Origin: a virus
Taxonomy: Duplodnaviria > Caudoviricetes
Direction: 5' to 3' (one strand)
Length of the DNA: 31,851 bases
IMG/VR virus record: IMGVR_UViG_3300037631_003378
Location: 1 to 31,851 of that record
Shown here: positions 7,169 to 31,851 of the stretch, piece after piece
Layout of the letters: the number at the start of each line of letters is the position of its first letter
Position numbering within the stretch: position 1 is the first letter of the stretch
Notes under the pieces: generated by a model
Databases searched by the model: none
What the model was told of the DNA's origin: nothing
What the model saw: the letters and a program-made list of their open reading frames with translations, nothing else
Position numbers and translations under genes: made by a program

Positions 7169-7187
7169 ATTTTGTATCTTTAGCGTT

Positions 7188-8168
7188 ATGATTAATGAGG
7201 TTCGCCAAACTGTACTCGCTATAGCGAATAAAAATAATTACGGATATATTTCTAGGCTTGATTTCAATCATTTTGCAAGACAGGCTCAATTAGAAATATT
7301 TAAAGAGTATATGTATGATTACAATACTCACGTTAACAAGCAAAATAAAAGGGTTTCAGTAAACCAATCTACAACCAGTCCTGTGGCATCTAACGATGGG
7401 TATGCTGACCTTGCGGAGCGTAAAAGACAAGTTATAGAGATATTCTCAACCTTAGCACCATTAGGCAACGCCACTGATGGGCATGTGTATGATAAGCCTA
7501 GCGACCTGTATCTTCTTAATAAACTCTTTTTTTATGATACTGAAAGGGTATCGGGCACAAAGGAGAGTGCGGTTAGTCCCAATAAGCTAGTAGATCCTTC
7601 ACTTACGGGGGTGTCTGCATTTGGGAATACAGCGTCCGCAGGTGACTTGGTTGTAAACACTGATGATAACACCTTGGCCTTTGTGGTGGAGGTGGAGAGT
7701 GGTACTTCGCTGAAGATTACCGACAATATTTTTGGGGCGGGGGCGCTTAAATACAAAATATTCAATCCTAGTAAGTATAGTGAGATTGAGATACAGGACC
7801 CCTCGAAAATATTTAACCTAGCGGCATCTACGTTGGTTAATCCATCTACTATGTTTCCGTCTTGCTTGATGCAGGCTGATAACATTATAATGTATCCTAA
7901 CACTATAACAAACCCTGGTAGCGTAATAACTCAATACGTAAGAAACCCAAAAGACCCAAAATGGACAGGGGTGACTGTTGGTGCTGCTCAAGGTCAAGAA
8001 ATATTTGATGCCACCGCTTCTGATTTTCAGGATTTTGAGTTGCCAAAGTCTGAGATACCATATTTAATATCTAAAATTCTACTTTCGGCAGGCATGTCAA
8101 TAAGGGAAACGGAGGTAACTCAAGCAGCGGCAGGGTTAGTAGGTTTAAATTCAAACGAAGATAGATAA
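7188..8168 (+). CDS. Tail ring / head-tail adaptor (tail tubular) protein 1 (326 aa)
   Basis: N-terminal 'NK...GYI...FN.FA.QAQLEIF', internal 'KPSDLY', and C-terminal 'QYVRNPKDP' and 'FELP' fit crAss-like ring/P22 gp4-like adaptors. Located before the stabilization protein. Confidence 0.65.
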   Translation: MINEVRQTVLAIANKNNYGYISRLDFNHFARQAQLEIFKEYMYDYNTHVNKQNKRVSVNQSTTSPVASNDGYADLAERKRQVIEIFSTLAPLGNATDGHVYDKPSDLYLLNKLFFYDTERVSGTKESAVSPNKLVDPSLTGVSAFGNTASAGDLVVNTDDNTLAFVVEVESGTSLKITDNIFGAGALKYKIFNPSKYSEIEIQDPSKIFNLAASTLVNPSTMFPSCLMQADNIIMYPNTITNPGSVITQYVRNPKDPKWTGVTVGAAQGQEIFDATASDFQDFELPKSEIPYLISKILLSAGMSIRETEVTQAAAGLVGLNSNEDR

Positions 8169-12000: not shown

Positions 12001-14964
12001 AATACAGCGACAAGTGCTGATGCCATATGTGACCTTAACTTCTTTAACTGCATAATGTTCTCTAATGGTGCTGAGTCTATGCGCATAAGGGACAGGATAA
12101 CAGACAACAAAATAACGCTAGGTGAAAGGGTTATGACTGTTGCAGAGAAAGAGTTTAAAGAGATAGACAGATTCGCATCCCTAACTTATAGTGGCGTTTT
12201 TATAGAGGAAACTGGATTAAACAAATTAAACGAGTTTAACTTAGGCGTTGCTAATTTTCAAGACCTAGACAAGTCTTTGGGCGAAGTTATGGTGATACAA
12301 GATATAGGTAACGACCTTTTAATACTACAAGAGGATCGGGTTTCTTATTGTCTTATTGATAAAACTTTGGTAACAACATCTTCGGGCAATGTTGCATTAA
12401 ATGCTGAGTCAGATATTTTTTTAGGAACTCAGGTTGCTAGATTGGAGGAGTTTGGGATAAGCAGAAATCCTGAAAGTTTTGCTAGGCACGGAATGGATTA
12501 TTTCTTTGCAGATACAAAAAGAGGTGCGGTTATAAGGTTAGCAGGGTCATCGGTAAGGGATATGGAAATGCTTGAGGTTTCTAAGATTGGATTGAGGTCA
12601 TTCTTTAGAGACAACCTAAAAGAAAATATAAACAAACAGCATATAGGAGCTTTCGATGAAGACTCAGACGAATACGTTTTAACATCTACCGACACATCAC
12701 TCCCAGCTGTAAATGTCATAGAGCCTTGTGATATTATAATACAGAGGGAAATAACAACAAGTAGGGCAGGGGACACAATAAACACAACGGTAGATTTAGG
12801 GGATGCGGTAGGCCCAGTTACTGTTGAAGTCAACATATCTGATTTGGCTCAGTTTGTATCTGAGGGTTCTAGTACAGCAAACCCTAATCAAAAAACATCG
12901 GGCACGACTACATCGTCTTCAGCAAACAAGTTAATAGACAGTAACGCTAAGTTTGTAGCAACAGTTACGGTTAACGACCAAGTTAGAATGACTGATGGTG
13001 CTGGTCTTGCTACCATATCTAGTATTGACTCGGATACACAACTCACATTAAGCTCCGACATATCATTGTCAGGTAGACGATATGAGGTTTATGCTTTTGC
13101 TGAAGGAAGAAAACTTATAGATACAAATGCCACGTTCGCTACGGATGGAGTTGCTCTTAATGATGTTATTGTAAATAAAACAACAGGGGCGGTTGGCAGT
13201 GTTAAGTCTGTTACGTCTGAGACAGAACTAATTCAAAATGCAGGGGGTGTCCTTAAATTAGGAGACGAATATTTAATTAAAAAAAGTTCTACGGGCTCTA
13301 TTACGCCAACCATAACTTGGAATGGGTCAACTCAGGGAGGTAGTGGAAGTGCGAAATCATCAACGTCTTCGTTTGCCTTTACTAAGAGTGCCTCCAAGCC
13401 GAGCACTATGGACTTGTCTATATTGTTCCCCGCAAAGGTTATGGGTAATTTTGTTGTGAAAGCACCTTGCCCTGAACCTACTAGGTTAAATGTTGTTTAT
13501 GTTGTCCTTAATAGCAACGAAAGTGATGACCAACAAGTTGGATATGCATTCTCAAGAATAGAAAGCGGAGGTTACTCAGACTTAGAAGGGGGGCAGTTTG
13601 TTTTAGGAACAGGAACAGACGCTACTGTCGTGAGTAGTTTTATTCAGAAGGCAGGATTGCCTGGAGAGGGTGTTATACCCGTCAGTGGTGATACAATAAG
13701 AATGGCTGCGTTTAATAATGGGTCGTTTGTTTTAGATGATATGACTGCTGCTGACCCTGTCCATAGGTTTAGAATACTTGAGACCTCTACGCAGTATACG
13801 GCATCTCAGATTCAAACAATACTAGCTAACTCTGAATTAAAGCCCCCGACATCTATTTCTGCTAACAGTGCAGGCGACGGGTACTTTGCTAACTTTAATT
13901 ATGTAAGGGAGAGTGGGGAAAACTACTTGTATCTAATATGGGATTTAAGGAATGTAAACAGACCAGCTGATTTTAGTGTGGTTTCTCCTGCAAGTTCATT
14001 TGATGACAACCTAAATACTGTCTGTTGCACCACAGGAAGCACACAATTATATATTGATGCGGATGACCCATTGAAAGTAAATGGAGTATTTACGGATAGA
14101 GACTTGGCCAACATCGCAAACGATGGTCTGTACAGTAGGGGCAATGGAGTGGCTTATCATATAAATGGAGGTCAATTGTCTGAAATAGTTGACTGCCCTA
14201 CGTGCGCTACGGCTTGTGCTACGTCAGCGTCAACTCCATTTGTGCCAGCTCAGGTTGTTTCAAACCAAGAGTTATATAGGTTGCCTGTGGAGCTTGGAAG
14301 CGCAACGGGTGCTGTTACTATCAGGATAAAGCCTAATGTTGACTTGTCTGGAGCTTTGTCGGCTACAGATCACGCAGGAATGATGATAGCTAGCTTGGGA
14401 GCAAATACGTTTAACTCATACACTTCGTCTGTGCTTGGGTTTGTTCAAAAGTTTTGGTCTCACAATGGCAAGATTGCGCCACTACCTTCTTCGGGTTCTG
14501 CTTCAGTTCCGTTTACGGTTAGAGATTTTAATGGTTCTTCTTACACGAACGATGGGGTTCAAAGTGTATTGGTAGACACCTCTGAGGTTACTGCCGCTAC
14601 AAATGTGGCCGAGTATGTAATGATTGTTCCAAAGACATCAGCATCTCCATCCAGGCTGTTGCTAAACTTCTTCTGTGTTAAGGCAAATCTGTTCCAAATA
14701 ACCGCAAGCTGTGCTACCGCACTGCCGTCATTCACTGGGTTCTTCAATGCGTCAAGTTCTGTTACAGCGTGTGCAGGAACACCTGCGACAACATTTTACC
14801 ACTCAACATTTAGCGGTGGGTCTGGAGGTACACCTGTTCTACACGATATTATATTTACTAATTCTAATGGCTCAACAAGAGCATCAGCAGGGTTTTACAA
14901 GGTGGGTACTGATGTATTGACTGTTGATTCTAATGGAGTCGTAACAAATAAAGCATCATGCTAA
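9088..14964 (+). CDS. Tail stabilization / muzzle (nozzle)-like protein with C-terminal accessory domains (1958 aa)
   Basis: ATGA overlap. Starts 'F..GRMNK..DER..P..QY.DAMN'; contains 'LLFFTDDFNPPRRIN', 'FAYRFRY.DGEYSA.S.FS', 'RLVYGNY..G', 'YEVGIVYMDEYNRSS' and 'EFGISRNPESFA....FFAD.KRG.V.RL', typical of P22 gp10-like beta-propeller stabilization proteins of Bacteroidota podoviruses. Confidence 0.8.
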   Translation: MRERREFTAGRMNKGSDERIVPESQYIDAMNIRVNSAGDSGEIGAVQNVQGSKRLSALEFAGIRLSFDTVCLGAFADDANETIYWFVHDPGGTNTTGATTTAVDMIISYNMSTDQLLYHAISVSVLNFSASHLINGINKVGDLLFFTDDFNPPRRINVTRNYPFPSGSPFADNVDEDDFSVIQKPPSSAPVVSTMSTGSEENFIEDKFICFAYRFRYKDGEYSALSQFSEVAFESNKFSFDRGTYDNDGCTNKHNAVDVTFNTGTENVSDIQLCFKISGTNTIHVVQNYDKVEFGLADNIDHTIVFDNSKIYTAIPDSQLLRMFDNVPRLAKAQTVIGGRLVYGNYVDGFDLVDSDGAKIKMTYTAERRELDLGVTKTQADSEISFSNLDYNISGGAVTVDNAQASIDFSNQNLNQGASFRLLFNFSREASSTYVPTSSELSTFSYEMFFKLPKDYSSVYDLFNSPEFKNALGFDITSQGYTNIANIDTSKSVTDNNSCNATGKFTEQYMCAYEGTRSRPSMSIIANGIEAIGTSISSLVETRQIQVTPTLGNNSVTFKFPAFKLNHSSTDFYEYFSIASMDYVALPPDAGQKSLHSNRDYEVGIVYMDEYNRSSTVLTSQNNNFFISAGNNNEINGTRVRIPVTQKPPTWASKYKFFMKSSGGDYDTIYSDIVFIDDANGTAYFRLEGDNKQKMKEGDRLIVKSDSAGAVDNLIECTVLGVESFEEDGLPVPASSPSGLYMSIKPDGDFDVSSGVSTLKIIDPDAVKTKRNKQPVLAFELFDTGGADIAITAGSIISMKIKHHRDGTKGNCDGFFDEYIMDDFVAQSDYANFKDFFDNHLGGLDFDRFKIDSGDISLDSHYDPSIGDSINDGGSNNIFGSDPNGKHEFQFVRQSNGGLELHTRAGRRGCAGRKKAKSNGIIKIQQSNGTFIFETKALELNNDIYFEGNQTFDVGVDGASKRIHKGNTQDQNTATSADAICDLNFFNCIMFSNGAESMRIRDRITDNKITLGERVMTVAEKEFKEIDRFASLTYSGVFIEETGLNKLNEFNLGVANFQDLDKSLGEVMVIQDIGNDLLILQEDRVSYCLIDKTLVTTSSGNVALNAESDIFLGTQVARLEEFGISRNPESFARHGMDYFFADTKRGAVIRLAGSSVRDMEMLEVSKIGLRSFFRDNLKENINKQHIGAFDEDSDEYVLTSTDTSLPAVNVIEPCDIIIQREITTSRAGDTINTTVDLGDAVGPVTVEVNISDLAQFVSEGSSTANPNQKTSGTTTSSSANKLIDSNAKFVATVTVNDQVRMTDGAGLATISSIDSDTQLTLSSDISLSGRRYEVYAFAEGRKLIDTNATFATDGVALNDVIVNKTTGAVGSVKSVTSETELIQNAGGVLKLGDEYLIKKSSTGSITPTITWNGSTQGGSGSAKSSTSSFAFTKSASKPSTMDLSILFPAKVMGNFVVKAPCPEPTRLNVVYVVLNSNESDDQQVGYAFSRIESGGYSDLEGGQFVLGTGTDATVVSSFIQKAGLPGEGVIPVSGDTIRMAAFNNGSFVLDDMTAADPVHRFRILETSTQYTASQIQTILANSELKPPTSISANSAGDGYFANFNYVRESGENYLYLIWDLRNVNRPADFSVVSPASSFDDNLNTVCCTTGSTQLYIDADDPLKVNGVFTDRDLANIANDGLYSRGNGVAYHINGGQLSEIVDCPTCATACATSASTPFVPAQVVSNQELYRLPVELGSATGAVTIRIKPNVDLSGALSATDHAGMMIASLGANTFNSYTSSVLGFVQKFWSHNGKIAPLPSSGSASVPFTVRDFNGSSYTNDGVQSVLVDTSEVTAATNVAEYVMIVPKTSASPSRLLLNFFCVKANLFQITASCATALPSFTGFFNASSSVTACAGTPATTFYHSTFSGGSGGTPVLHDIIFTNSNGSTRASAGFYKVGTDVLTVDSNGVVTNKASC

Positions 14965-15836
14965 TAAGAAAAGGAGATAAGGGAGAAGAAGTAAGACAGA
15001 TTCAGCAAGAACTCGATATTGAGGCTGATGGTGTTTTTGGTCCTGTAACTGAGTCTGCTGTGATGAGGTTTCAGGTTGAATCGCATCTAGAGGTAGATGG
15101 CATAGTAGGTCCTAAGACTTGGGCTGTAATGTTTGGCTTGACCACAGACATTCAAGAGTCACTAGACAGTCAACACGGAATTGTTATTAACCATCATATG
15201 CTACCTAAGCGTCAATACCTTAGAGGTCCAACTAAAAAGGAATGGCTGTTCTTACACCACACGGCAGGATGGCATAACCCGTATCGCACCGTTGACCATT
15301 GGGGTAGAGATAGCAGGGGCAGAATTGCAACTGAGTTTGTTTTGGGTGGGCCATCTATATTTAACGATGAGTTCAAGTACGACGGTGAGATTGTCAAGTG
15401 TATACCTGATGGAGGATATGCTTGGCATTTAGGAAGTAACGGATTCCAAGAGATGCATACAAATAGTGTGGGCATAGAGGTGTGTAACTTCGGATACCTA
15501 AAGGATGGGAAAACTTATGCTGGGCACACTGTGCATCCAGATCATTCCGTTGAGCTAGCAAAAGAGTTCAAGGGGTATAAGAATTGGCATAGATACTCTG
15601 ACGCTCAGATTGAGTCTTTGCGTAAGCTAATATTGTTTATTGCAGACAGGGATAATATAAACGTCAGGGAGGGTCTTCCTGCCCTTATAAAGGAAAAGGG
15701 AGCCAATGCCTTCGAATGGAACAGAGAGGCTTACTATGGGCACGTTAGGGGCCTTCTATCGCATTCCAACACTAACAAGGGCAAGAGCGATATGTTCCCA
15801 CAGGAAGAATTATTAACTATGTTAACAGAACTATAA
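14958..15836 (+). CDS. N-acetylmuramoyl-L-alanine amidase (Amidase_2 type) with N-terminal peptidoglycan-binding domain (292 aa)
   Basis: PG_binding_1 signature (G.KGEEVRQIQ..L....DGVFGP.T..AV..FQ....L.VDGIVGPKTW). Amidase motifs LHHTAG, NSVGIEVCN, YSDAQIESL..L and SH.....KSD (Zn ligands H/H/D). Confidence 0.9.
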   Translation: MLIRKGDKGEEVRQIQQELDIEADGVFGPVTESAVMRFQVESHLEVDGIVGPKTWAVMFGLTTDIQESLDSQHGIVINHHMLPKRQYLRGPTKKEWLFLHHTAGWHNPYRTVDHWGRDSRGRIATEFVLGGPSIFNDEFKYDGEIVKCIPDGGYAWHLGSNGFQEMHTNSVGIEVCNFGYLKDGKTYAGHTVHPDHSVELAKEFKGYKNWHRYSDAQIESLRKLILFIADRDNINVREGLPALIKEKGANAFEWNREAYYGHVRGLLSHSNTNKGKSDMFPQEELLTMLTEL

Positions 15837-19073: not shown

Positions 19074-22000
19074 ATGGTATATAGCTCAAAAAAACAAGAA
19101 TTATATAAGTTCTTAAAAGACAGGAAACTTGTTGCTGCTACCGAATCCGAGTTTAGCAAGTTGTTTGATACCATTGGGTATCAAGACCAAATATTTAATG
19201 AGCTAAAAAGTGGCGGGTTTTATGCGGGGAGCAAGGGTCAGTTTTTGGATGAATTTTCTACTATTTCTAGGTCGGACTTAGAGAGCCTGAGTGCAAACGA
19301 AATATTCACGGAAAAGGACGGCAAAAAATCAACCGTCACATCCCAAGTAGGAAATTTTGCCGAGAGTATGGATCCGGGCGCAAAGCTAAATTCATACATA
19401 AGGGAGCTGTCAAATAGCCCTCAGTTTGACGATAAGTCTAGACAGAGAGTGCAAGGAGCAGGCGTTAGGGCAGCCACCCCTTCAGACCCTTCAAAGTTTA
19501 AAGGCTTTGAGTTGTATGATAGAAATAATGGGGAGGTTATATCAAAGTTTGATTATAGCTTAACTAGCTATGGCGAAAGACAAAACGCTCTTCAATCAGC
19601 AATGGGTGATTTGCTCACTTGGGCTCAATCAAAGGGGCCGTCAGATATTGAACCACAAGGTCCTGGATTAGACTACCAAAAACTTTACGGCACGATTACA
19701 GAGCAGACAAAGCAAAGGTCAGCGCAGGTCTTGGCGCTTCAAGCTCAATATAGTTTTCCGACTCGACAGGGCGAGTTAACAAATATGACATTAGGTGAGG
19801 GGCAGACTATTGAGGGTAGAATGAGACCCGACTTAGACCCCGCCAATCTAACTACTCAAGACCCTGAAGAGGGGATGAAAGGTACGCTTCCTAGAGACGC
19901 AACGGCAAAGGCCTCTGTTTTTGGACAGAATCAAGTTGGATACGTCTATGCGAACGGATTGTATAATTCGGGTAATTATAGCCTAGACAATGCCTTGAGT
20001 GAATATGAGGGCAAAAAGATAATTGACAGCGAAGGCAGGGAGCAAGTGGTTAAGTCTGCTAAAAAACAAGAAGCCGAATCTGGAGCTATGGAAATAGTTT
20101 TGGAATATGAAAAGGGTGGAAGTGATAAGGTTTTTCAAGAGGAGGGGATAGAAAAGATTGCTCTTGGCAATTTATATGACATATCTAAAATAAGAGACGA
20201 TTTCGACCCAAGTCTAGAACAAACTATTATGGATGATCCTGACCGTTTGTATGGAGAGGGCTCTGTAGGGAACCTTGACGCTTTCAAGTCAAATGATCCT
20301 GAATATGTTTTTAACGATTTTAAAGTAAAGGTTGACGCATTAATGTCTTTAAATGACATGGGTGACGAAGAATTGGTTTCTCAAGCAACAGAATACGCCA
20401 ACAACATATTAAAAAATATACCACTAAGCGCATCAACTAAAAGTTTTGTTGGAGATGTTTACGACGCTAGCTTAGGTAAGACAATTAAGAAGCAATTTAG
20501 CAGTAGAGATGAATATTTTACCTACCTAGTTAACAGATACCTTCAAGAGGCAAATCCTAGGTATGGCCAAACAAGCGAATTATCTACACTTAGGGATAAT
20601 GTTTTCAATGCAGGTGAGGGGAATCCCTATATGCATGGATATACATTTAAACTTAACAACTCAGACTATACCATAGCCGAAGTGTTAAAACACACTAGTA
20701 AGAGTGGCGAGTACAATATTGCCCTAGCTAACAAACCGGTGGGGGAAGCTAGAGGTATATTCGAGGGGGTTGAATCTTATAATCTTTATGACAGAAACAT
20801 ATGGGAAAGGTTCAGAGACAATGTGACTCTTAAGGATGAAAGGGCTTTAGTTGAGGAGCAGGAAAGAATGGACGATGTTCAGGGTGAGCTAAAGAAATAC
20901 TATGATTATTATCAAGATGCTTTTTCTGCGGCATATTTATCAGGCGAAGTTGACTTGGCTAGAGACTTTTACAGAACACTTAAAAACATCGAAAGAAACT
21001 CTGTTGGAATCGTAGACTCTGAGACCATGGAGTTTTTTAAAGAGCTCGAGTACGTTCAAGATTGGAAAGAGGATGACTTCGAGTCTAAGCCCTTAACGCT
21101 TCAGGCTATAGGAAATATTAAAAACACCTTGGGTGGTTCAGCATACAAGGCCGTGGTGGGCACTATAGGCTTGGCTGGATACGCAATGAATTGGTCTGAC
21201 GAAAACAAATTTGCCGACGACATAATAGAGTGGTCAGGTAAAATGCACAAAGCGGGGAATCTTAGAACTGACAACCTAACATCTGATTACTTTTCTTCTC
21301 CTGTTTATGGAAGCAGTTTAGAGTACGAGGGCTACAAAGTATATGTTGATGAAACGGGGAGGCCTACAAATGTTTACACTAGTGAACTTGGTCACGTTTC
21401 GGAGGCAGAAAAAAGGAAGGTATTAGACCAAATAAGCAAAGACGAATCATTTGAAGAAAGAGAGGTTAAATCAAGGGAGTGGTATAACCCTTCACTTGCA
21501 GGAACAGTTGGGTCTTTAACGAGGGTATCCTCTGATTTGGCTGTTTTGGCTGCGGGAGGTGGTATTGGATCTGGACTTACTAGAGGAGCATTGAAGGCCC
21601 TGCCAAAGGCTGCTCAGTACTCTACTCAATTGATAAATGCGGCAATGCCAAAAGTTATTGGTACGTCTATTATTGCTGGTCAACAATATAACGACCTAAG
21701 GGAATATGCTTTACAAGCTGGATTTTCTGAAGACGAAGCCAACAACTATGCGGGCAGAGTGGGTCTTGCTATTGGTTTTACTAACATGGCGTTTGGTGGA
21801 CTTGAGAAAGGATTAGTCGGTGGAGGGTATAGATCTATGACTCCTACGGTGACTGCGGCGGCCTCCAAACTTGCCCCTGAGCAAGTAATGAAAAACGTTG
21901 TTAAAGGGCAAACTGCTAGGTTTCTAAAATCAGGTGTTATTGAAGGCGCAAAAGAGACGTTTGAGGAAGTTGTTCTTGAAAACCTAGTTCAGTCAGGGTA

Positions 22001-25000
22001 TCACGGGTATGCCGCGGCACGGTCTGATAATAAGATTGAGGAGCATACTAGAACTGCTGATGAAATATATGAAACTGTTCTCGTGTCTTTCATCACTGGA
22101 TTTGCGGGCGGAGGACGCTCTGTTACTGGAGAGATTTCAAACTTAAAGAATGCTCAACAATTTGAACTTGACGAGTTATTGTTTCCTGCAGCCAAAAACA
22201 TAAATGCATCCAAGAAGGCGGTAGAAAGACTAGTTGCTGATGGAGTTATTACTAGCAAAGTAGGAATTGACCTTAATAAGAATCTTGAGTACGCACACAG
22301 GGCATATGAAAATATGTCTCCAAGGGTTAAGGACAAAGAGAGTATAAACTTAATTTACAGCAATGAAATGGCTTCTCAAAGACTAGAAGCACAAGCCGCT
22401 AGGGAGAGAAATCCAAAAAGAAAGAAAAGAATAGAGAATAAGGTTGAAAAACTACAAACCATAAACTCCACAATAACTGGCCTTCAAGAGGTTTATGACA
22501 CAGGTGATTCAGCGTATGTGTTAAATGGGGAGCTGGTGAGCAAGGATGAAATATTATCTTTTTTCGACAACAACAATCCAAAGACTTTTAAAAGAACTCA
22601 GTATCAAGTTATAAATGATCCTAACGTAGCGTCTGAAATACAAGATATAACCTCAGAATCTTTAGGGTCTCCTTTGGCTCAGTCTGACATCATGTCTTCT
22701 TTAAAGTCTGAATACGATACGTCCAGGATTAAAAAGGGAAAGTCTAAATCTCAGCAAAAAATTGATGACATAAAATCAGAGATAGATGACGCTGATGGCG
22801 TATCAAGGTCAATGCAGAATGCTAGGCAAAAAGACGGAAGCTACCTGTTTTCTGTAAAGCCTCCTGAAGGATTAGAAAGTGAGGTTGTAAAAACAGAAGC
22901 TGGAGAAACCTATAAGGTTACTAAAGAGGCTGGAGATGAATTTATAACTAAGCTAAACCAATTCAAAGTAGAAAAGGGCGCAGAGGCATCTGCTGAAATA
23001 GAAGAGAGCAAGGCAAGGCAAATAACGGCTAATTCACTAATGGCCAAAACTAAGTTAACCAAAGAGGACCTGTCTGAAATAAAAGAGGGGTATGATAATA
23101 TTCTTGCAAGCCTTAACGCTGAATTGTCAGAGTTACAATCGGGCAAAAAACAAAAAGACGGCAGTTATTTTTTCAAAAAAAGACCTAAAATTGGCAGAGT
23201 CACTCCAAGTAGAAACATATTTAATTACACTACGGGTTATACAATGTCTGAGTCTGATTTTGAAGAGGCAGTTGAAAACAGGAAGAGAAATATTGAATAT
23301 TTTTCTAAGGGATCTGAATTGGCAATCAGCGATTCCTCTCAGGAGTTTGACAGCAGAAGTAACCTAGCATATAGTCAGGTTGGCGCTTTAATTAATGCAG
23401 GTAAAAAACAACGAGCGCTAGAAGTATATTCAGATTATGTTTTAACCGCAGGGGATTACAATGCGTTTAGTGAGTCTAGTATAAACCAAGAGTTTGAAGA
23501 AGAAATTGTTAATACTGGAGTTCTTAAAGTAACCTTAGAATCAAAAAAGGCCCCAGCTGAGTTAACGGAAAAAATAAAAGAGGTTAGAGAGGCTGAGAGG
23601 GTACGTTATAGTGCTATTGCATACCATAAAAAAATATACATACCTGGACCTAATGCTAGAAAGGCTCTTAAAGGAGCCAAGTCAGAGTTTGCTAATAAAG
23701 ATGGGATAGGGGTTTCAAATGTAAAACCACCTCAAGAGCTGGGCTATACATATGCCACGGTAAAAATTCCTTTTATGAGCCGGCCAACTGACATAACATT
23801 TAAGGGCGGTTTTTCTCTTAATCAGACAAAAGAATTGTATGTTTTTGAGGATTTTGATAAATATAATAGTCAATTTACTGAAAACAAGAATACGTTTGAA
23901 GCCCTCAATAACTTTTCGGATGCTCGTAGAAATATTTTAGGAAGAGCGGATGCGGCAACCGAACAGGAGGAGGCTGCTCCAGCAACTGAAGAAGTAGCAC
24001 AAGAAGCACCTGCTGAAAAAGTAAATATTCAACCAACTGATAGCAGTAATCCATCTTTTGAAGAAGGGAGTATGCAAACTTTTAGCGTTGATGGTGGTGT
24101 TTTGGAGATAGGTAGAGTAAAAGGGAATAAGGTATTTTCAATATTGCGCTTGCAGGTAGATGAAAGTCAAAGGAGAAAGGGCAAGGCGGGGGCCTTGTTA
24201 AAAGCAGCTATATCATATACTGACGGCCAAATTTCAGGAGTTGCAACTAACGATGCTTCTGTATCATTGAATTATAAATTAGGGATGAGGGCTAAAGGAG
24301 ATGAAAATTTATCTTTAGAAGAGACATTAGCCAAAAGAACAGAAAAATCTGAGGATGGTACTATAACTATGATTGTTCCATCAAAAAAGGGCGTAACCGA
24401 AGAGGCTGTGACCCCAGCTCCTGTATCAGAGGATCAAAAGCAACCGCCAAAAAAGGTTGTTGCAAGGAAAATAGAGGATAAGCCAAGGGTAGATGAGTTT
24501 AAAGAAAAACTAGAACAACCATTTGCTGAAGGCGCAGAGGTTACGATTAAAACAGATACTGACTTAAACAGAACTAGAGGCGTAGAGACAACGACATTTG
24601 TTCAGACTATATTAGATGAGAAAGGTCGACCAAAGACACAAAACTACAAGACATATAACTCTTTAGAGCAACTTGCTGAGAACTTAGATGCCGACATGGA
24701 TGCTGAAGCAAACAAACCGGCTGTTGAGCAATATGCAGACGCAAAAAACAAAGAGATACAACTAGTAGAAGTAAGGGAAAATAAGTTTGAAAAGTCTCCA
24801 AACTTCGGACAGCGATTTGCCACCATTATTATTGATGGAAAAAGAGTAGAGGTTCAGCTAGAAGAGGGATTTGCTGGAAGAAGGGCTACTGACGTGAACT
24901 CCTTAACTGCCATAAATAAAGACATATTTGGGCTAAGTAATAAGAAGGCTAAAGCGGCGGCAGTTATCAGCGACAGAATGGTCGAGGCTATGGCAAAGAG

Positions 25001-28000
25001 AGATGGCATTTCCAAGGAGGAGATGTACAAGAAAATCTCTTTCAGAAGAAGCCCTGGAGGAATCCCTAAGACTATGAACCCTGCAAGCCTATTGTTCCAA
25101 TCGGACTATAGCTCAAGAGACAGCAAAATAACCTTTACCTTTTTCAAGAACTCCAAGGAGTTTGACGATGCTGTTAAAGCTGGATTAATTGAGAAAGATG
25201 TATCGATTGAATCATTGGATGGCAAAACGGCAGTGTTCCACCAACCAGATGACGCTTCTGTGTCCAACTTTACATACAAAGGAGAGACTATTTTAAAGGG
25301 TCAGGGCGGTGCTCTTTACCCCATAGTGTTTAAGCAAGATGGAGACGTACAGCAACCAGTTTGGGCTAGCACAGGAGAGGCCGCTGCAAGTGGACTTGTT
25401 AACCTTATAAATGAGTCGGGAGTAAGCAATGAGGATGGCGTGGCTAGAATGGTCCTTACTACGGGATCAAGAACTAAAAACCTTAGCAACTCAAACTCAA
25501 TGGAGGGCGTTGCAAGCATCTTTAGCGCTTTTTCAAACAACCCTGACTTTGGTATAACCGAAAACACATATAAGAAGTCTGTGGTAGCAGCAATGAAAAA
25601 AGCTGGTATAGAAAACAACCTAACCACAAAGAGTTCTTTAGACGAAATAATGACCACTATACAGGTTGTGTCAAGACCACAGAACACAAACTTTCAAAAA
25701 AGAAAGGACTTTAATGAACAATTGATTACTGAGATATTAAGCAGAAGTAATAATAACGCAAATAGCAAGTTTGTTAAATCTATGAAGTCATTCTTTGCTG
25801 ACACGGGGTACAAACTGTCTGTGTCTAGTAGAAGAAACTTAGCGATTAAAAAGGGAGATAAAGGCGGATTGGTGAATGGATTTGCTTACGTTTTAGGAGA
25901 GCCTATTGTAAGGGATTTAACTAGTAATGGATCGGGTCAGGCTTATGCTGTGATTGAAGTTACAAGACCTGAAGGGGTTGCTCTTGATGCTCCATTAGTG
26001 GAGGCAGTTGCAGATGATGCTCACGGAAGTTATCCATTTGCAATAAAAACCATTAACCCTCAGTCTAAGGTTAGCGTCAAGTTCTTTGATAAAACGTCTC
26101 CTAGAGAAAACATAGTAGAGAATCCCAACAAGCAAGGGGAAAGGTTCTCTGATGCTCTTTCTGATTTAGAGCAAGGAAGGCCACGTAAAAGTGCTCACGG
26201 CAAAGTGTTCCCTGGGCAAGCGGGTGTCTCTTCAAGCATTCTTAAAATGATGACCGAGAGTCCTGTCGCTCAAGAGACAGAGAGCCAAATAGTAAAATCA
26301 GACATCGAGGAGTCCACCAACAGAATGGAGTCCCAAGATGGAGCAACCTCTACGGTTCTTGATGAGGATTCAGAGGTTGTGTTTCACGGCTCACCAACAC
26401 CACTTGAGGGGAAAACCATAAAACGAGGGCCATCGGGAGCAATATTCTTGACTCCAAACAGAAGGTATGCAGAAATATATTCTACTGATAGAGGGGGTGA
26501 AGTAACTCAAACAATAATTTCCAAACAAAAGAAACAGAATCTATTCGATTTAAGAAACCCTAAGCACATTGAGAAACTAAAACAAGGGTTTTTAAAAAAC
26601 AATGAGGAGCTTGAAGTAGAATACGATTCAAAAGAAGATGCTTTACGAGATTACAATAATGCTATTAGAAGCATGAGAGAGGCATCAGAGGGTGGAAATG
26701 GCATAAATGATTGGGCTACTGGCAGTCAGTTTATTGACCAAATGGAGAACGCAGGATTTCAAGGAGCATTGTTTGCCGAAAGACCCGAAGGTGTTATTGA
26801 TGAAAGTGCTGTGATTAGCTATGCCTTGTTCGATAAGCAACTACCAATTATGAGTAGGGAGCAGACCTCTACGGTTCTTGATGAGGCCAAGGAAATGTCT
26901 GTTCTGCCATTACCTGAAAGATTCCTATTGGGATACGAAGAAGCAACAGGCAAGAGCGTATCTGAAAAAGACAAGCAGTCGTTTTTGTATAAGCTGGGGC
27001 GTAAGTTTAAGTATCAGCCTGGTGGGGTGTTTGTTGACATGAAGCAATTCAAGGCTGTAAATAACTTCACGGGAACTTCAGCTAGAATTAGTGTTGATCC
27101 TGAAACGGGCAAACCATCCCTTAGTGTATCCGATAATGTTTCTGAAACAGATGTTACTAAGGGTAAGGGCAAAATTATTAGAGTCAACCTATTCAAGAAG
27201 TCAGCTGGATGGAAGTGGACGGCAAACTTCGACGGGAACACCTATGAGAATTTAGATAAGATAGTTTCCGTGAAGGTTGGAAGCAAGCACATATACACCC
27301 TCAACTTCGACGGGGCTGTGCCTGTAACACTAAAGAGCTACCCTAAGGAGCCTTCAGAGCCTAGATTAAAACCAACAACAAGGGGTTCTGTTCACCTAGG
27401 GCCTATCATTGGTGAGATAACTAGGAACAACATTACGAACCCCGTATACTCCACAGTAACGGTATTTGACCCTAACGACAAGGCAACTATAGATAGGCTC
27501 ATAGAAAGAGCTCAGTCCAGATCAAACTCGGCAATACTGCCTACGCAAGAAAATTACAACAACCACCAGCTAAAGGATGTTCCCGAGTCGTTTGTTAAGT
27601 TCCAAGAGAACAAGGGGGCTGTTTTTTCTAAGCACGGGAGGCATATAATATTTGCATTAGAGAATCCTGATATTTCAACACCTCTTCACGAGATGGCTCA
27701 CGTATATGAAAATTACCTGACCAATGCAGATAAGAAGGTTGTTATGGATTTTGCGGGCGAGAAGCAATGGAACAGGTCTGTAAGTGAGAAGTTCGCTAGA
27801 GGGTTTGAAAAGTATCTTGCTGAGGGTAAGGCCCCTTCTACCAATCTCAAAAAAATATTTGAAAGTTTCAAGACTTGGCTTACTGATATATATAATGGCA
27901 TAACAGGTTCAGCAATAGACATCGAGTTGAATGATGGGATGCGTGCCATATACGCCACTATGTTAGGCGGTGAAGTTGTTTCTGAAAAGAAACCTGCCCC

Positions 28001-31000
28001 CACAAAAGCTAAGAAAGCAGAGCCAACGGTTGAAGTGGCTGAGGCTAAGAAAGCAGAGCCAACGGTTGAAGTAGCTGAGGCCCCCGTGTCTACAGAAAAA
28101 TTAGACAGTTTCAAGGCTGAAGTTAAAAAGGTCTTGGCTAGTGACAAAACTCTTACGGCAAAGAAGAGCGCCCTGAAGACAATGGTGAACAGACAGGCCA
28201 AGGGTCTAAACTTGGTGGGCAAAGAGGGTCGATTTGTAGATAGGCTTGGGAAGGCTAGGTCTGAGATGTCTATGACCAACGCCATAAATGACTTTATAAA
28301 GGTTGCTGAAAAGCAAGCGAAAGTTCCTGGAAGAATGATTGTTGTCAACGAGGCTAAGGAGTTGATAAAGAGAATTAAAGAAATTGACCTTGCAACTAGG
28401 CGTGCCGAGATGAGTGTGAAAAAGCGTAGCGTTGCAATGCTTAGAGACATTGAAGCCTTCTTGAAAGAAAACAAGATAAGCAAGGAGAATAAAGTAAACG
28501 CTCAGATACTCAGAAGGCTGAAGTATGTTATAGGCAAGAAGAACCCTAACACAATAGCTAGGTTTGAGGCTTATCTAAACAACATAGTTAAGGATGCGGC
28601 ATACGCTGAGAAGTTTAAGAATGCGGATGGTATCAGAAAAAAAATAAAAGGCAAAAGAAAAAGAGACGCTGTACCTGGAGACATCAAGGCAATTGCGAAT
28701 GATTTTATAAGTCTAAACATAGAGAGCGTTCCTAACATAGATGAGTATACTCAATTGGGTGCTATTATTTCAGCTGGAATGGAGAACTCCAAGATGATAA
28801 AGGGTGAGCCTCGCATGCCAAAGACATTTAACAAGTCTGAAGTAAACGCATATGTATCCAAGGAGCTGGCAAGGCAAAGAGATAAGCAAGCCGAAGAGCT
28901 AAAGCAAAAACTAGTAGACGAGGGGTTAGATCCAAAAGGTCTTACAATGTCTCAAATGAAAGCAGCCCTGAGGGGAGACCAAACGACAAAAAAGGAAACA
29001 ACCAAAGAACTTATAAATAATTTCAATGCTTTATTTGAAAGGCTTACGCCAGACGTAGAAGCAGAAATAAAAAACAGGGGTCTTGGTAAGCAAGATGCTA
29101 AGTTGGTCAAGGACTTTGTGGCTATGGATTTAAACCTACTCAAGGATAGAGCTATGGTTATAAAAGCCGCCAATGTATTGACTAACTTCTTGGAGAATGG
29201 TAGCTTATATGGAATGTCTGAATCCGTTAGTTATCATACTGGTAGAAAAAATTTACTTCAAGATATTGAGGATGGCCTTAAAGGGGCGAAAAGGTCAAAG
29301 TATAACATTATTGGAAAATTTGACGACAGAACGGCAAGAACTTTTTATAGTACCCTGATTTCTGTTATGGGGGGCACAAACAAGTCTAACACATTTTTCA
29401 ATAACTCTGGTTCAGCGGATCTCGTTAAGGGGTCAAACTCTGGAGAGAAGACAGTGAATGAATACTTGAATGGTTTTGCTGATTTAAGGGATGGCAGTAT
29501 AAGAAAAGCCGTGTTCTCTCTTAAACTAAGCAAGTTGCCTTCACTGAAAAAAAGAAAAAACAACACATATGACCAGCACGTAGAAAGAGCTATGTACGCT
29601 CACTTAGATAGAATAGAGGAGGGCTCTAGCAAGGAAGAGGCTTTTGCGAATAATAAAAGAATGCTTAAAGAGTCTGTAGAGGTGCTAACCAAAATAGATT
29701 CTAAAAAAGGTGAGGCTCAACAAAAAGTATACGATAGAATAGTAAAGGGTTCTGAAACAATAGAGGATGTTGTGACTAAAATGAATCCTGATTCCTTAGG
29801 GTTGGTTAGTTATTGGAGGGACTTATACTCAAAGCACTTTCCAGAGCTAAAAAGAGTTACTGAGCAGTACTACAACAAACGACTACCTAACGATCAAAAC
29901 TATTTCCCAAGGTCTTTCATAACGATTGACCCCACAGAGTTTGCGGAGGAGGCCGCACAAAGTTATGGCGCTCAAAGACAGGCTAGGATAACATTAGACA
30001 CTCAGAAAATTAAATCACTTCCAAAGGGCAAGATTCTTAATTTAGATTTTGATAGGGTGGCCTACACTAGGCTGAGAGAGGGTCTCATTGATGCTAGAAC
30101 CGTGGAGTCGCTGAAGCAAATAGATGGATACGTGAACTCACCTGAGTTTATTGAAATTGTAAACACAAAGGAACAAGTAGAAAGAGTTAGGAGTAGGATT
30201 GACATCTATAGGAGGCTCAAAAGAAATGAGCTGGGGCAACCCCTAGATACTGATGTAGAATCAAATAAGGCGGTTAAAAAGGTGTTCAGAACTCTTACCA
30301 CCGTAGGTATGGCGAAGGTTATGGTTCAAGTGAGTCAATCTATGAAGCAGTATTTGACCGCAATGATTAGTGCCACGAGTCAAGTTGGAGTTTCGAACAT
30401 TATAACAAAAGACATCATTTCTGTTTTTAATCCTTATAGTGAAGCAAATAAATTTATAGACAGAACAAGCCTTTCAATTATAAATAGAGGCTATGGGTCA
30501 AGGGTAGAGGTAGGAATGGAAGAGAAGCTATCAAGGTCATTATCTGCATCTCAAAATTTAGCGTTCTCTGGGCTAGATGTGATAGATTCAATTTCAACAA
30601 GTGCACTTCAATTGTCTGTTGGGTTTTTTGATAAGATGGCTGCAAGAACAGCGTTCCTTGGGTTTTACAAGAAGAAGCTAAAGCAGATGGGGCTTCCTCA
30701 TAAGAACATTGATTGGGCGAGCCACGAATTAAATGAGGAGGCTGCTTCATTCGCAGACATCAAAGTTGCAGATACTCAAAACGTATCCGATGAGGATATG
30801 AAGGGCGCATTTTTTACTAACAAAAACAGTGTAGCTAGAGGGCTTATTAAAATATTTATACCCTTGTCAGGATTCAGACTTAATGCAAGAGTTAGAGTTA
30901 ATACTAGTGTTAAGATATTAGCAAGTCCAGCCACTACGATAGAAGACAGAAGAGATGCAGCGGCAAACCTTGTTGGTACATTTAACGAGATGGTTAGTTA

Positions 31001-31851
31001 TGTAGCTATAGGCTATATGATGGGTAGATATTTATTTGCCAAGGCTGGTGATAAATTAGGGTTTGAGGATCCAAACAAGTGCGATGAAAAGGTTGGTGCA
31101 CTTGGATTTGTAATGTGTAAAAAGGACTTGGATTATATCATTGGAATGTATGGCGGTAGATTTTTAAACGATTTATTAAACCCATTCCCACCTGGGGATG
31201 AGCAAGCAATAGTATTGTACAACAAAGCATTAAATCTTCTTTCTGAAAAAGACGAAGTGGATCAAGAGGATTTATTTAGAACATTTGACACTGGGGGATA
31301 TAACCAAATGCTTGGTATTGCTGGGGTTGTTTTTGAAGATATAGAAGGCATGCTAGAATACCAAAGACTTGCAAACACGGGGGAGTACATTTATGAAGAT
31401 GAGTTCGGCAATAAGACCGTAAAGAAAATATCTCCTGAGAGTCAAGCCGTATTACAAGAGTATATGGTGTTTAACTACTTCTCACCGGTTAGGGAAGTCA
31501 GAAGGTACATCAACAACCTTGTGACACACACCAAAAGGATGGGAGAGGATAATTTCTATACTGATGCATTCTTTGAGCAAACGTATGGCTATGTTATGGA
31601 AAAACACAACCTAACTGTGGATCAAATCAAACAATACGTTACATACGAGTTTGACAAGTTTGGCAACAGAAAAGATGGCTTGAATCCAGAGTATGAGCTA
31701 ACTGAAAACGCCTTGGCTAATCTCAAAAGAAACAACCCTAAGGAGTATCAGGTATACCAAGATATACAAGCGGCGATAGAGGAAGCAGAAAAGGAGTACA
31801 AGTTTATGAAAACAATGTACAAAGCATTAAATGATTATACTACTCGCCAGC
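19074..31851 (+). CDS. Giant polyvalent internal virion protein (at least 4259 aa, 3' truncated) with GNAT, ADP-ribosyltransferase-like and HExxH zincin domains
   Basis: ATG at 19074 in an A-rich context (taattaaaaaaacaATG; MVYSSKKQELYKFLKDRK...). The frame was open in every segment I translated, including the last line (...FMKTMYKALNDYTTRQ). Its absence from the ORF track is consistent with no in-window stop. Confidence 0.88.
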   Translation, partial: MVYSSKKQELYKFLKDRKLVAATESEFSKLFDTIGYQDQIFNELKSGGFYAGSKGQFLDEFSTISRSDLESLSANEIFTEKDGKKSTVTSQVGNFAESMDPGAKLNSYIRELSNSPQFDDKSRQRVQGAGVRAATPSDPSKFKGFELYDRNNGEVISKFDYSLTSYGERQNALQSAMGDLLTWAQSKGPSDIEPQGPGLDYQKLYGTITEQTKQRSAQVLALQAQYSFPTRQGELTNMTLGEGQTIEGRMRPDLDPANLTTQDPEEGMKGTLPRDATAKASVFGQNQVGYVYANGLYNSGNYSLDNALSEYEGKKIIDSEGREQVVKSAKKQEAESGAMEIVLEYEKGGSDKVFQEEGIEKIALGNLYDISKIRDDFDPSLEQTIMDDPDRLYGEGSVGNLDAFKSNDPEYVFNDFKVKVDALMSLNDMGDEELVSQATEYANNILKNIPLSASTKSFVGDVYDASLGKTIKKQFSSRDEYFTYLVNRYLQEANPRYGQTSELSTLRDNVFNAGEGNPYMHGYTFKLNNSDYTIAEVLKHTSKSGEYNIALANKPVGEARGIFEGVESYNLYDRNIWERFRDNVTLKDERALVEEQERMDDVQGELKKYYDYYQDAFSAAYLSGEVDLARDFYRTLKNIERNSVGIVDSETMEFFKELEYVQDWKEDDFESKPLTLQAIGNIKNTLGGSAYKAVVGTIGLAGYAMNWSDENKFADDIIEWSGKMHKAGNLRTDNLTSDYFSSPVYGSSLEYEGYKVYVDETGRPTNVYTSELGHVSEAEKRKVLDQISKDESFEEREVKSREWYNPSLAGTVGSLTRVSSDLAVLAAGGGIGSGLTRGALKALPKAAQYSTQLINAAMPKVIGTSIIAGQQYNDLREYALQAGFSEDEANNYAGRVGLAIGFTNMAFGGLEKGLVGGGYRSMTPTVTAAASKLAPEQVMKNVVKGQTARFLKSGVIEGAKETFEEVVLENLVQSGYHGYAAARSDNKIEEHTRTADEIYETVLVSFITGFAGGGRSVTGEISNLKNAQQFELDELLFPAAKNINASKKAVERLVADGVITSKVGIDLNKNLEYAHRAYENMSPRVKDKESINLIYSNEMASQRLEAQAARERNPKRKKRIENKVEKLQTINSTITGLQEVYDTGDSAYVLNGELVSKDEILSFFDNNNPKTFKRTQYQVINDPNVASEIQDITSESLGSPLAQSDIMSSLKSEYDTSRIKKGKSKSQQKIDDIKSEIDDADGVSRSMQNARQKDGSYLFSVKPPEGLESEVVKTEAGETYKVTKEAGDEFITKLNQFKVEKGAEASAEIEESKARQITANSLMAKTKLTKEDLSEIKEGYDNILASLNAELSELQSGKKQKDGSYFFKKRPKIGRVTPSRNIFNYTTGYTMSESDFEEAVENRKRNIEYFSKGSELAISDSSQEFDSRSNLAYSQVGALINAGKKQRALEVYSDYVLTAGDYNAFSESSINQEFEEEIVNTGVLKVTLESKKAPAELTEKIKEVREAERVRYSAIAYHKKIYIPGPNARKALKGAKSEFANKDGIGVSNVKPPQELGYTYATVKIPFMSRPTDITFKGGFSLNQTKELYVFEDFDKYNSQFTENKNTFEALNNFSDARRNILGRADAATEQEEAAPATEEVAQEAPAEKVNIQPTDSSNPSFEEGSMQTFSVDGGVLEIGRVKGNKVFSILRLQVDESQRRKGKAGALLKAAISYTDGQISGVATNDASVSLNYKLGMRAKGDENLSLEETLAKRTEKSEDGTITMIVPSKKGVTEEAVTPAPVSEDQKQPPKKVVARKIEDKPRVDEFKEKLEQPFAEGAEVTIKTDTDLNRTRGVETTTFVQTILDEKGRPKTQNYKTYNSLEQLAENLDADMDAEANKPAVEQYADAKNKEIQLVEVRENKFEKSPNFGQRFATIIIDGKRVEVQLEEGFAGRRATDVNSLTAINKDIFGLSNKKAKAAAVISDRMVEAMAKRDGISKEEMYKKISFRRSPGGIPKTMNPASLLFQSDYSSRDSKITFTFFKNSKEFDDAVKAGLIEKDVSIESLDGKTAVFHQPDDASVSNFTYKGETILKGQGGALYPIVFKQDGDVQQPVWASTGEAAASGLVNLINESGVSNEDGVARMVLTTGSRTKNLSNSNSMEGVASIFSAFSNNPDFGITENTYKKSVVAAMKKAGIENNLTTKSSLDEIMTTIQVVSRPQNTNFQKRKDFNEQLITEILSRSNNNANSKFVKSMKSFFADTGYKLSVSSRRNLAIKKGDKGGLVNGFAYVLGEPIVRDLTSNGSGQAYAVIEVTRPEGVALDAPLVEAVADDAHGSYPFAIKTINPQSKVSVKFFDKTSPRENIVENPNKQGERFSDALSDLEQGRPRKSAHGKVFPGQAGVSSSILKMMTESPVAQETESQIVKSDIEESTNRMESQDGATSTVLDEDSEVVFHGSPTPLEGKTIKRGPSGAIFLTPNRRYAEIYSTDRGGEVTQTIISKQKKQNLFDLRNPKHIEKLKQGFLKNNEELEVEYDSKEDALRDYNNAIRSMREASEGGNGINDWATGSQFIDQMENAGFQGALFAERPEGVIDESAVISYALFDKQLPIMSREQTSTVLDEAKEMSVLPLPERFLLGYEEATGKSVSEKDKQSFLYKLGRKFKYQPGGVFVDMKQFKAVNNFTGTSARISVDPETGKPSLSVSDNVSETDVTKGKGKIIRVNLFKKSAGWKWTANFDGNTYENLDKIVSVKVGSKHIYTLNFDGAVPVTLKSYPKEPSEPRLKPTTRGSVHLGPIIGEITRNNITNPVYSTVTVFDPNDKATIDRLIERAQSRSNSAILPTQENYNNHQLKDVPESFVKFQENKGAVFSKHGRHIIFALENPDISTPLHEMAHVYENYLTNADKKVVMDFAGEKQWNRSVSEKFARGFEKYLAEGKAPSTNLKKIFESFKTWLTDIYNGITGSAIDIELNDGMRAIYATMLGGEVVSEKKPAPTKAKKAEPTVEVAEAKKAEPTVEVAEAPVSTEKLDSFKAEVKKVLASDKTLTAKKSALKTMVNRQAKGLNLVGKEGRFVDRLGKARSEMSMTNAINDFIKVAEKQAKVPGRMIVVNEAKELIKRIKEIDLATRRAEMSVKKRSVAMLRDIEAFLKENKISKENKVNAQILRRLKYVIGKKNPNTIARFEAYLNNIVKDAAYAEKFKNADGIRKKIKGKRKRDAVPGDIKAIANDFISLNIESVPNIDEYTQLGAIISAGMENSKMIKGEPRMPKTFNKSEVNAYVSKELARQRDKQAEELKQKLVDEGLDPKGLTMSQMKAALRGDQTTKKETTKELINNFNALFERLTPDVEAEIKNRGLGKQDAKLVKDFVAMDLNLLKDRAMVIKAANVLTNFLENGSLYGMSESVSYHTGRKNLLQDIEDGLKGAKRSKYNIIGKFDDRTARTFYSTLISVMGGTNKSNTFFNNSGSADLVKGSNSGEKTVNEYLNGFADLRDGSIRKAVFSLKLSKLPSLKKRKNNTYDQHVERAMYAHLDRIEEGSSKEEAFANNKRMLKESVEVLTKIDSKKGEAQQKVYDRIVKGSETIEDVVTKMNPDSLGLVSYWRDLYSKHFPELKRVTEQYYNKRLPNDQNYFPRSFITIDPTEFAEEAAQSYGAQRQARITLDTQKIKSLPKGKILNLDFDRVAYTRLREGLIDARTVESLKQIDGYVNSPEFIEIVNTKEQVERVRSRIDIYRRLKRNELGQPLDTDVESNKAVKKVFRTLTTVGMAKVMVQVSQSMKQYLTAMISATSQVGVSNIITKDIISVFNPYSEANKFIDRTSLSIINRGYGSRVEVGMEEKLSRSLSASQNLAFSGLDVIDSISTSALQLSVGFFDKMAARTAFLGFYKKKLKQMGLPHKNIDWASHELNEEAASFADIKVADTQNVSDEDMKGAFFTNKNSVARGLIKIFIPLSGFRLNARVRVNTSVKILASPATTIEDRRDAAANLVGTFNEMVSYVAIGYMMGRYLFAKAGDKLGFEDPNKCDEKVGALGFVMCKKDLDYIIGMYGGRFLNDLLNPFPPGDEQAIVLYNKALNLLSEKDEVDQEDLFRTFDTGGYNQMLGIAGVVFEDIEGMLEYQRLANTGEYIYEDEFGNKTVKKISPESQAVLQEYMVFNYFSPVREVRRYINNLVTHTKRMGEDNFYTDAFFEQTYGYVMEKHNLTVDQIKQYVTYEFDKFGNRKDGLNPEYELTENALANLKRNNPKEYQVYQDIQAAIEEAEKEYKFMKTMYKALNDYTTRQ
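24021..24380 (+). other. GNAT acetyltransferase domain within the giant ORF
   Basis: Motif A-like LQVDESQRRKGKAGALL (24150-24200) and motif B-like NDASVSLNYKLGM (24249-24287), bounded by E/A/P-rich linkers. Confidence 0.75.
26346..26886 (+). repeat. Perfect 22-nt direct repeat ACCTCTACGGTTCTTGATGAGG at 26346-26367 and 26865-26886
   Basis: Read directly from the sequence. Copies are 519 nt (173 codons) apart, both in frame (TSTVLDE). Confidence 0.95.
26376..26850 (+). other. ADP-ribosyltransferase-like domain (ART-PolyVal type) within the giant ORF
   Basis: VVFHGS (His codon 26385), GAIFLTPNRRYAEIY, LFDLRNP, AGFQGALF and ISYALFD follow the HG(S/T)...G.YFT...A..Y...GYDG...vvF pattern. Confidence 0.7.
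27600..27966 (+). other. Zincin-like metallopeptidase domain within the giant ORF
   Basis: FQENKGAV...IIFALENPDISTPLHEMAH (HExxH at 27687-27701), a downstream Glu in SEKFARGFEKYLAEGKAP (27786), then FESFKTWLTDIY. Confidence 0.8.
28008..28079 (+). repeat. Tandem 36-nt duplication encoding AKKAEPTVEVAE x2
   Basis: 28008-28043 and 28044-28079 differ by one synonymous base (GTG/GTA). Confidence 0.95.

Follow-up and report, generated by a model that had tools for sequence, protein, structure and literature searches.

A 519-nt in-frame cassette encoding an ART-PolyVal-like module, bounded by a 22-nt direct repeat, varies among strains of a marine phage

How an enzyme-like domain can enter or leave a giant structural gene in frame is the question raised by a 519-nt segment in the last gene of a marine phage virion operon, where two identical 22-nt sequences bracket a domain resembling ADP-ribosyltransferases (ART). 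The DNA analysed here, referred to as the window, is the whole stretch of 31,851 nucleotides at positions 1 to 31,851 of IMG/VR record IMGVR_UViG_3300037631_003378. A preliminary description of it proposed either a recent domain insertion with a target-site-like duplication or a switch by which the phage population toggles or swaps an injected effector. The features to which we refer are the following.

19074..31850, + strand: giant polyvalent-type protein gene, last in the portal/capsid/muzzle operon; the window end cuts the ORF
24015..24383, + strand: GNAT-like second optional module within a TEEAV-type linker array, without counterpart in protein P0004
26340..26345, + strand: GGAGCA, 6-nt microhomology ahead of copy 1, matching 26858-26863 with a one-base offset
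26346..26367, + strand: 22-nt repeat copy 1 (TSTVLDE, aa 2425-2431), from an exact repeat search
26373..26849, + strand: ART-PolyVal-like mobile module (aa 2434-2592), by homology to 17 other proteins
26850..26864, + strand: MSREQ tail, read from the sequence, which holds GGAGCAG and is putatively donor-derived
26865..26886, + strand: 22-nt repeat copy 2, native N-terminus of the downstream domain
26865..27443, + strand: downstream domain of unassigned function, related to proteins P0015-17 and P0019
27591..27983, + strand: region with a HEMAH (HExxH) motif (phrog_9880 match, E 7e-20)

As a sequence search confirmed, ACCTCTACGGTTCTTGATGAGG occurs at 26346-26367 and again at 26865-26886, identical also at synonymous positions, and the spacing of 519 nt is in frame: both copies begin on a codon boundary of the ORF from 19074 (aa 2425 and aa 2598) and encode TSTVLDE. 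The preceding letters are also as first described, GGAGCA before copy 1 and GGAGCAG before copy 2, which gives 29 columns with one gap (chance roughly 1e-3). No third copy was found at up to three mismatches, none of 100 shuffles yielded two matches, and the window has just one exact repeat of greater length, which forms the 29-nt core of a 36-nt tandem at 28008. With the gene's own codon use, identical coding of TSTVLDE twice by chance has p = 3.2e-4. The repeats had been said to enclose exactly the ART-like domain; this holds to within 2 and 5 codons and not to the base, in that the homologous module starts 5 nt past copy 1 and ends 15 nt ahead of copy 2. The intervening MSREQ tail is likely a remnant of a donor's linker, because REQ also ends the repeats of proteins P0005, P0007, and P0024. 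The 22-mer is confined to this phage: 1 IMG/VR record has it, as do 7 of 63 loci, every one a copy of the phage's own DNA. IMG/VR searches with the flanks returned only this phage, and the 22-mer is not a family-wide junction shared across distant phages.

An assembly artefact, which the preliminary description had named as a way in which its reading might fail, would be a trivial source of such a repeat. Copy 1 is spanned by contigs in sequencing runs X6 and X7 and copy 2 by contigs in X7 and X8, and one contig in X3, possibly the window's own sample, spans the whole locus. Further, seven near-identical cluster members were listed, of which four are full-length, each with both repeat copies, and a diverged filled allele exists (see below). 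Because independent contigs span each copy, the repeat is not an artefact of assembly, a possibility that we consider negligible.

The window contains the virion operon of a marine phage: genes for portal, capsid-type, and other virion proteins and for an endolysin, followed by the giant gene, with a weak crAss muzzle match among the genes upstream of the latter. The endolysin (amidase plus peptidoglycan-binding domain) lies at 14958-15836 and has a structural gene on either side, of which one is muzzle-like. A terminase was seen only in the relative G003, to be set alongside the portal and virion genes that lie upstream of the giant gene in the window. The identical IMG/VR contig L003 completes the ORF, and the full giant protein has 4,299 aa. 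Among annotated proteins, the domain that precedes the 22-nt repeat is most closely related to structural proteins from Flavobacterium elemo phages (28%), and the host is therefore presumably a member of the Bacteroidota. The elemo homologue of the giant protein is annotated "structural protein"; the term "mass spectrometry" is absent from the available text on the elemo phages (PMC7077304). One giant chain thus joins at least two unrelated enzyme-like domains (ART-like, GNAT-like, HExxH region), each weakly assigned, the GNAT-like module having a Pfam match at E 0.002, below the cut-off. We take the HEMAH motif to be metallopeptidase-like. The downstream domain gave no usable match in the protein-cluster atlas or Pfam. 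The 36-nt tandem (12 residues) at 28008-28079 is present in two copies in proteins P0031 and P0036 and in one copy in P0003 and P0032, a difference that is either a real contraction or an assembly collapse.

We next consider what the repeats enclose. Modules related to it at 56-75% identity are found in 17 other proteins, of which 16 are full-length and 1 is a fragment; with the module of P0030 the identity is 36%. Its language-model neighbours are ART-PolyVal (PF18760) clusters (0.94; 191 and 185 shared features), and PF18760 is present on 54% and 22% of the members of the two neighbour clusters. Five homologues of the module match PF18760 at 18.9-26.5 bits (E 1e-5 to 3e-3; gathering cut-off 31.2), and the window's copy gave no Pfam ART match at E up to 10. 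Like PF18760 (Tox-ART-HYD2 clade), the module shows a strand-1 FHGS, an aromatic strand-2 motif followed by YA..Y, and a GF.G motif; unlike it, the module falls under the curated cut-off, has Phe in place of Tyr, and has its strand-5 acid out of place in the alignments. At the level of residues, the strand-1 HG is invariant in 19 of 19 aligned modules, the strand-2 Tyr position is Phe (AIFLT), and neither of the two registers tried places an acidic residue at the strand-5 position; an invariant Glu sits in ERP. So aligned, the triad reads H-F-non-acidic, compared with the H-Y-D given for ART-PolyVal in the available text of PMC5512222. The Pfam-passing domains of P0014 and P0030 likewise show Phe or Trp at the strand-2 Tyr position. 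Structure prediction of the module was poor (pLDDT 36 from a single sequence and 50.6 from four sequences); the PDB returned nothing by Foldseek or by sequence search, and the viral structure library BFVD returned weak rows (best E 3e-3), several labelled ART-PolyVal. GenBank phages gave no match to the module, and of 4 GTDB pattern matches 1 is a clear relative, without a repeat. Base composition does not set the module apart (GC3 0.32; 80 of 410 windows are as low). Overall, the motifs, the cluster neighbours, and the sub-cut-off homologues uphold the label "ART-like" in part, the non-canonical triad and the missing Pfam match of the window's copy speak against it, and the module resembles an ART-PolyVal domain weakly to moderately, as judged by motif. 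Its likely activity is binding of NAD+ or ADP-ribosylation of a target in the bacterium.

If the 519 nt are a cassette, then relatives without them should read through a single TSTVLDE, as had been predicted. Such empty alleles exist. Protein P0004 (94% identical; 3767 of 4009 aligned residues) reads through one TSTVLDE without the module, its junction being letter-for-letter as predicted, and it also lacks the GNAT-like module at 24015-24383 (117 residues net). Similarly, contigs in X14, X16, and X18, from three studies and 3 of the 8 runs examined (20 listed), skip exactly 519 nt at the repeat. The preliminary description's alternative, that all relatives are filled and no empty site exists, is thereby excluded. 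The empty strains differ from one another and are about 5-6% diverged from the window upstream and 3-3.5% downstream (one 344-nt piece 9%). Because the downstream flank is no more diverged from the empty strains than the upstream one, there is no long foreign tract at the module. The letters that fit both sides of the skip number 19, 19, and 20, and because only 19-20 letters fit, the single copy of the empty strains appears to differ from the 22-mer at one base.

The filled allele was also recovered more than once. It is present in X15, which belongs to a study other than those of X14, X16, and X18, with 12 differences in two contigs over 26287-26911, and it is unchanged in X6, X7, and X8 where covered (the module part lacks coverage in X8). 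The X15 contig is 97% identical from 26287 on and diverges before, a possible recombination breakpoint ∼60 nt before copy 1, seen at a depth below 5. At the 2% divergence found among filled alleles, simple arithmetic gives a probability of about 0.64 that the two 22-nt copies remain identical, and therefore the window itself requires no homogenisation. Both alleles were found together in none of the 8 runs, as read from contigs, which drop rare variants. Overall, the 519-nt segment is a recent, strain-variable, in-frame cassette.

Deletion between the two copies would yield precisely the junction of the empty alleles, and it could therefore be asked whether the module is old at this site, with the empty strains arising by secondary repeat-mediated deletion. 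The relatives of the downstream domain bear on this point. P0015-17 and P0019 begin this domain with a peptide similar to TSTVLDE and lack the module, whose motif is present in 0 of 10 proteins carrying the domain; the single copy of the empty alleles is thus the start of the downstream domain. In 2 of 35 downstream-domain loci (L013 and L015), a distant, classical H-Y-E ART directly precedes the domain in small proteins without repeats. This would suit an old module, and it indicates that the adjacency of ART and downstream domain has arisen by another route as well. However, an old module leaves the duplication of the junction unexplained, the empty strains differ among themselves, and the outgroup proteins are without the module. 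We consider secondary deletion as the general explanation improbable, while noting that it is compatible with the insertion model for some strains. Because the downstream-domain relatives start with a similar peptide and carry no module, the original event was most likely an insertion, and some empty strains could be later deletions. The first reading of the preliminary description, insertion with a target-site-like duplication, is thereby supported, in that the empty alleles hold a single copy at the start of the downstream domain.

We then compared the 17 full-length giant proteins that host the module, a count that leaves out the fragments P0001 (VEEEV twice) and P0002, the distant P0030, and the near-copies P0003, P0032, and P0036. 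The modules have spread through otherwise dissimilar proteins: of the 16 hosts other than the window's, only P0005 and P0014 share a further stretch with the window's protein (26-27%). The window's module is 75% identical to those of P0005-P0009, among which only P0005 shares another stretch (27%). P0005 and P0006 carry 98% identical modules, their backbones can be aligned along a single stretch (44%), and neither repeat copy is the same in the two proteins. Of the 17 hosts, 8 have an exact repeat 6-9 residues long around the module (7 of 16 if the window is set aside; counted by backbone, about 7 of 15), and the remaining 9 have no such repeat. The left copy abuts the module start and the right copy begins 0-11 residues after the module; each exact 6-mer of these repeats occurs only twice in its protein, and the repeats differ from host to host. 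As a null, bracketing repeats of at least 6 residues were found at 0 of 6,637 slid positions and in 2 of 272 cross-host pairs, both the orthologues P0005/P0007. The recurrence is known at the protein level, the window's own DNA aside; six other hosts with readable DNA showed no repeat (longest shared stretch 11 nt, of low complexity). In the module tree, repeat-bearing rows are no more clustered than shuffles (78 of 500), a pattern that neither supports nor excludes several origins of the bracketing repeats.

In the P0011 lineage, where backbones are 97-98% identical downstream of the slot, the arrangements A-ART-A, B-ART-B, and A-GNAT-B occur, and therefore both copies have changed in concert and modules have been swapped at one slot. 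The earlier proposal of a swap thus stands for this lineage, in which ART and GNAT alternate, but a swap was not seen at the window's site. A 74%-identical copy of the window's GNAT-like module occupies the ART slot of P0048. Further observations concern related arrangements. Exact 8-9-residue repeats bracket other ART-like domains in P0014 (residues 1775/2052) and P0030 (722/887 and 3312/3499). At L057 5827-6285 a 59%-identical module lies within a 2,173-residue ORF; the record bears the title of an Aenigmatarchaeota MAG chromosome, and the bin may include phage DNA. The cultured Flavobacterium elemo phage L007 carries a perfect 26-nt in-frame repeat at 7181-7206 and 7577-7602, 396 nt apart, around an unnamed domain, and 15 nt of this repeat recur immediately right of the ART module in L045. 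The 26-nt-bracketed module of the elemo giant structural gene is kept in 68 of 68 elemo records, which are near-clonal isolates.

These data can be set against the second reading of the preliminary description, an active switch in which the repeats recombine and the module is excised, possibly as a circle, and re-inserted so often that one population holds both forms. Strains that are about 95% identical do include both alleles, the two copies change together in the P0011 lineage and GNAT takes the place of ART there, the phage has a Sak and exonuclease pair (see below), and near-identical proteins differ in how many copies of the 36-nt tandem the giant gene has. However, a toggle within a population was not seen: none of the 8 runs contained both alleles (contigs only), the divergence of the empty strains is 3-6%, and the one copy that they have seems to be one base off the window's. 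Retention of the analogous module in all 68 elemo records makes very frequent loss unlikely, with the reservation that these isolates are near-clonal. Such a switch is, in our view, unlikely. Selection at the protein level was considered as well, whereby no domain can do without a leading linker of its own, such as a processing site, and insertions persist only if they duplicate the linker. An R-x-Q motif in many repeats (P0005, P0006, P0007, P0014, P0020, and P0024) would fit, as would the HExxH motif in the protein, given that autoproteolysis was proposed by Iyer et al. in the available text (PMC5512222). Yet the repeats of the window, P0010, and P0011 share no R-x-Q motif, 9 of 17 hosts are without a repeat, and identity at synonymous sites (p 3e-4) demands an event at the DNA level anyway, which together make selection of linkers a doubtful explanation.

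Returning to insertion, we consider it probable, with some reserve, that the giant gene of another phage supplied the module and that two short-homology crossovers, staggered with respect to each other, brought it in and so duplicated the host's own 22-nt junction. The remainder of the identical contig encodes a Sak-like protein (E 3e-50) next to an exonuclease VIII (E 7e-28), at L060 3528-4845. The relative G003 has this pair too (L061 18510-19846); genes for primase, helicase, and DNA methyltransferase come after the pair. Pfam ERF and Rad52 searches of the genomes each gave 0 of 4 records, and the Sak gene was found with PHROGs. Two long overlapping ORFs in L060 (8896-10077 and 9038-10009; same strand, different frames) both match DNA methyltransferase families. 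In the proposed path, Sak and the exonuclease would pair short homologies during co-infection; a strand would leave the host just after the 22-mer, copy the donor module, and return at the GGAGCA microhomology just ahead of the 22-mer, giving the second 22-nt copy. Only frame-preserving products would survive, the gene being structural. With 22 nt in each copy, or 28 if one gap is allowed, the repeat pair could then serve as a low-frequency handle for loss, homogenisation, and swap, the filled allele could spread from strain to strain by ordinary recombination in the flanks, and the module would likely be delivered into the host cell as part of a virion protein. According to the available text of PMC3945230, Red-beta pairs 23-27 bp and Rad52-like proteins recombine short homologies; the 22-nt repeat is slightly shorter than the length cited for Red-beta. 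A donor with the window's junction sequence was not found (nearest module 75%), and the crossover path accordingly depends on a 6-nt match with a one-base offset.

Target-site duplication by transposons and insertion sequences leaves one copy of the target when empty and two flanking the insert. The locus resembles this in having its target once in the empty allele and twice around the module, and an enzyme supplied in trans, be it a transposase, an integrase, or a nicking enzyme, might have inserted the module with a 22-nt duplication; the sharp and constant module start and the host-specific duplications would agree with such an enzyme. In contrast to transposition, the duplication here varies in length (6 to 9 or more codons, the right copy beginning 0-11 residues after the module) and is always in frame, and no enzyme of these three kinds was found among the 14 window genes and 17 scanned ORFs of the contig's rest (record about 76% complete). 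Further, the module junctions show no hairpin, terminal inverted repeat, or att-like structure (z -0.33 and 0.22). For the same reasons, with no integrase in the scanned ORFs, no hairpin, and repeats that differ between hosts, the locus is unlike an att-type cassette, and we hold an enzyme in trans to be very unlikely.

Polyvalent proteins and phage mosaicism are already known (PMC5512222, PMC9503650, and PMC7077304, in the text available). Like the polyvalent proteins of Iyer et al. (2017; PMC5512222), the protein studied here is a giant phage protein with unrelated enzyme-like domains, a portal-type virion operon, and a variable architecture. Unlike that account, in whose available text no DNA-level mechanism is given, the present case shows filled and empty alleles, with swapped alleles in another lineage, and exact repeat-defined ends. 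In the main text of PMC5512222, "linker" and "shuffl" each occur 0 times and "repeat" twice, and the available text merely suggests cassette recombination, for one Verrucomicrobium locus. The locus also resembles the mosaicism by Rad52-like recombinases described by De Paepe et al. (2014; PMC3945230, available text), with its short-homology exchange and, here, a Sak/exonuclease pair; it differs in that homologous segments are exchanged between genomes there, whereas here there is in-frame addition within one gene with the junction duplicated. In the literature searched, which left most subscription papers outside its scope, we found no description of repeat-bounded filled, empty, or swapped domain alleles in polyvalent proteins, nor a demonstration of a domain entering or leaving a 13-kb structural gene without breakage.

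Overall, the locus supplies natural before-and-after alleles with base-exact ends, its gene contains a further optional module, and the elemo phages provide a cultured group with an analogous repeat-bracketed module in which the rate of loss and its dependence on the recombinase are measurable. Speculatively, each enzyme module in the giant virion proteins of these marine phages might sit between 20-30-nt direct repeats, forming integrase-free cassette arrays. Sak and the exonuclease would use the repeats for in-frame excision, re-insertion, homogenisation, and exchange of modules (ART, GNAT), at a frequency that lets strains and populations retune an injected anti-host arsenal; we put this forward as a tentative idea that is perhaps wrong. 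Because close relatives without exactly this module keep one repeat, and other giants flank the module with repeats of their own, the host-specific repeats around the same module likely mark a recurring way to plug enzyme modules in and out while leaving the gene intact.
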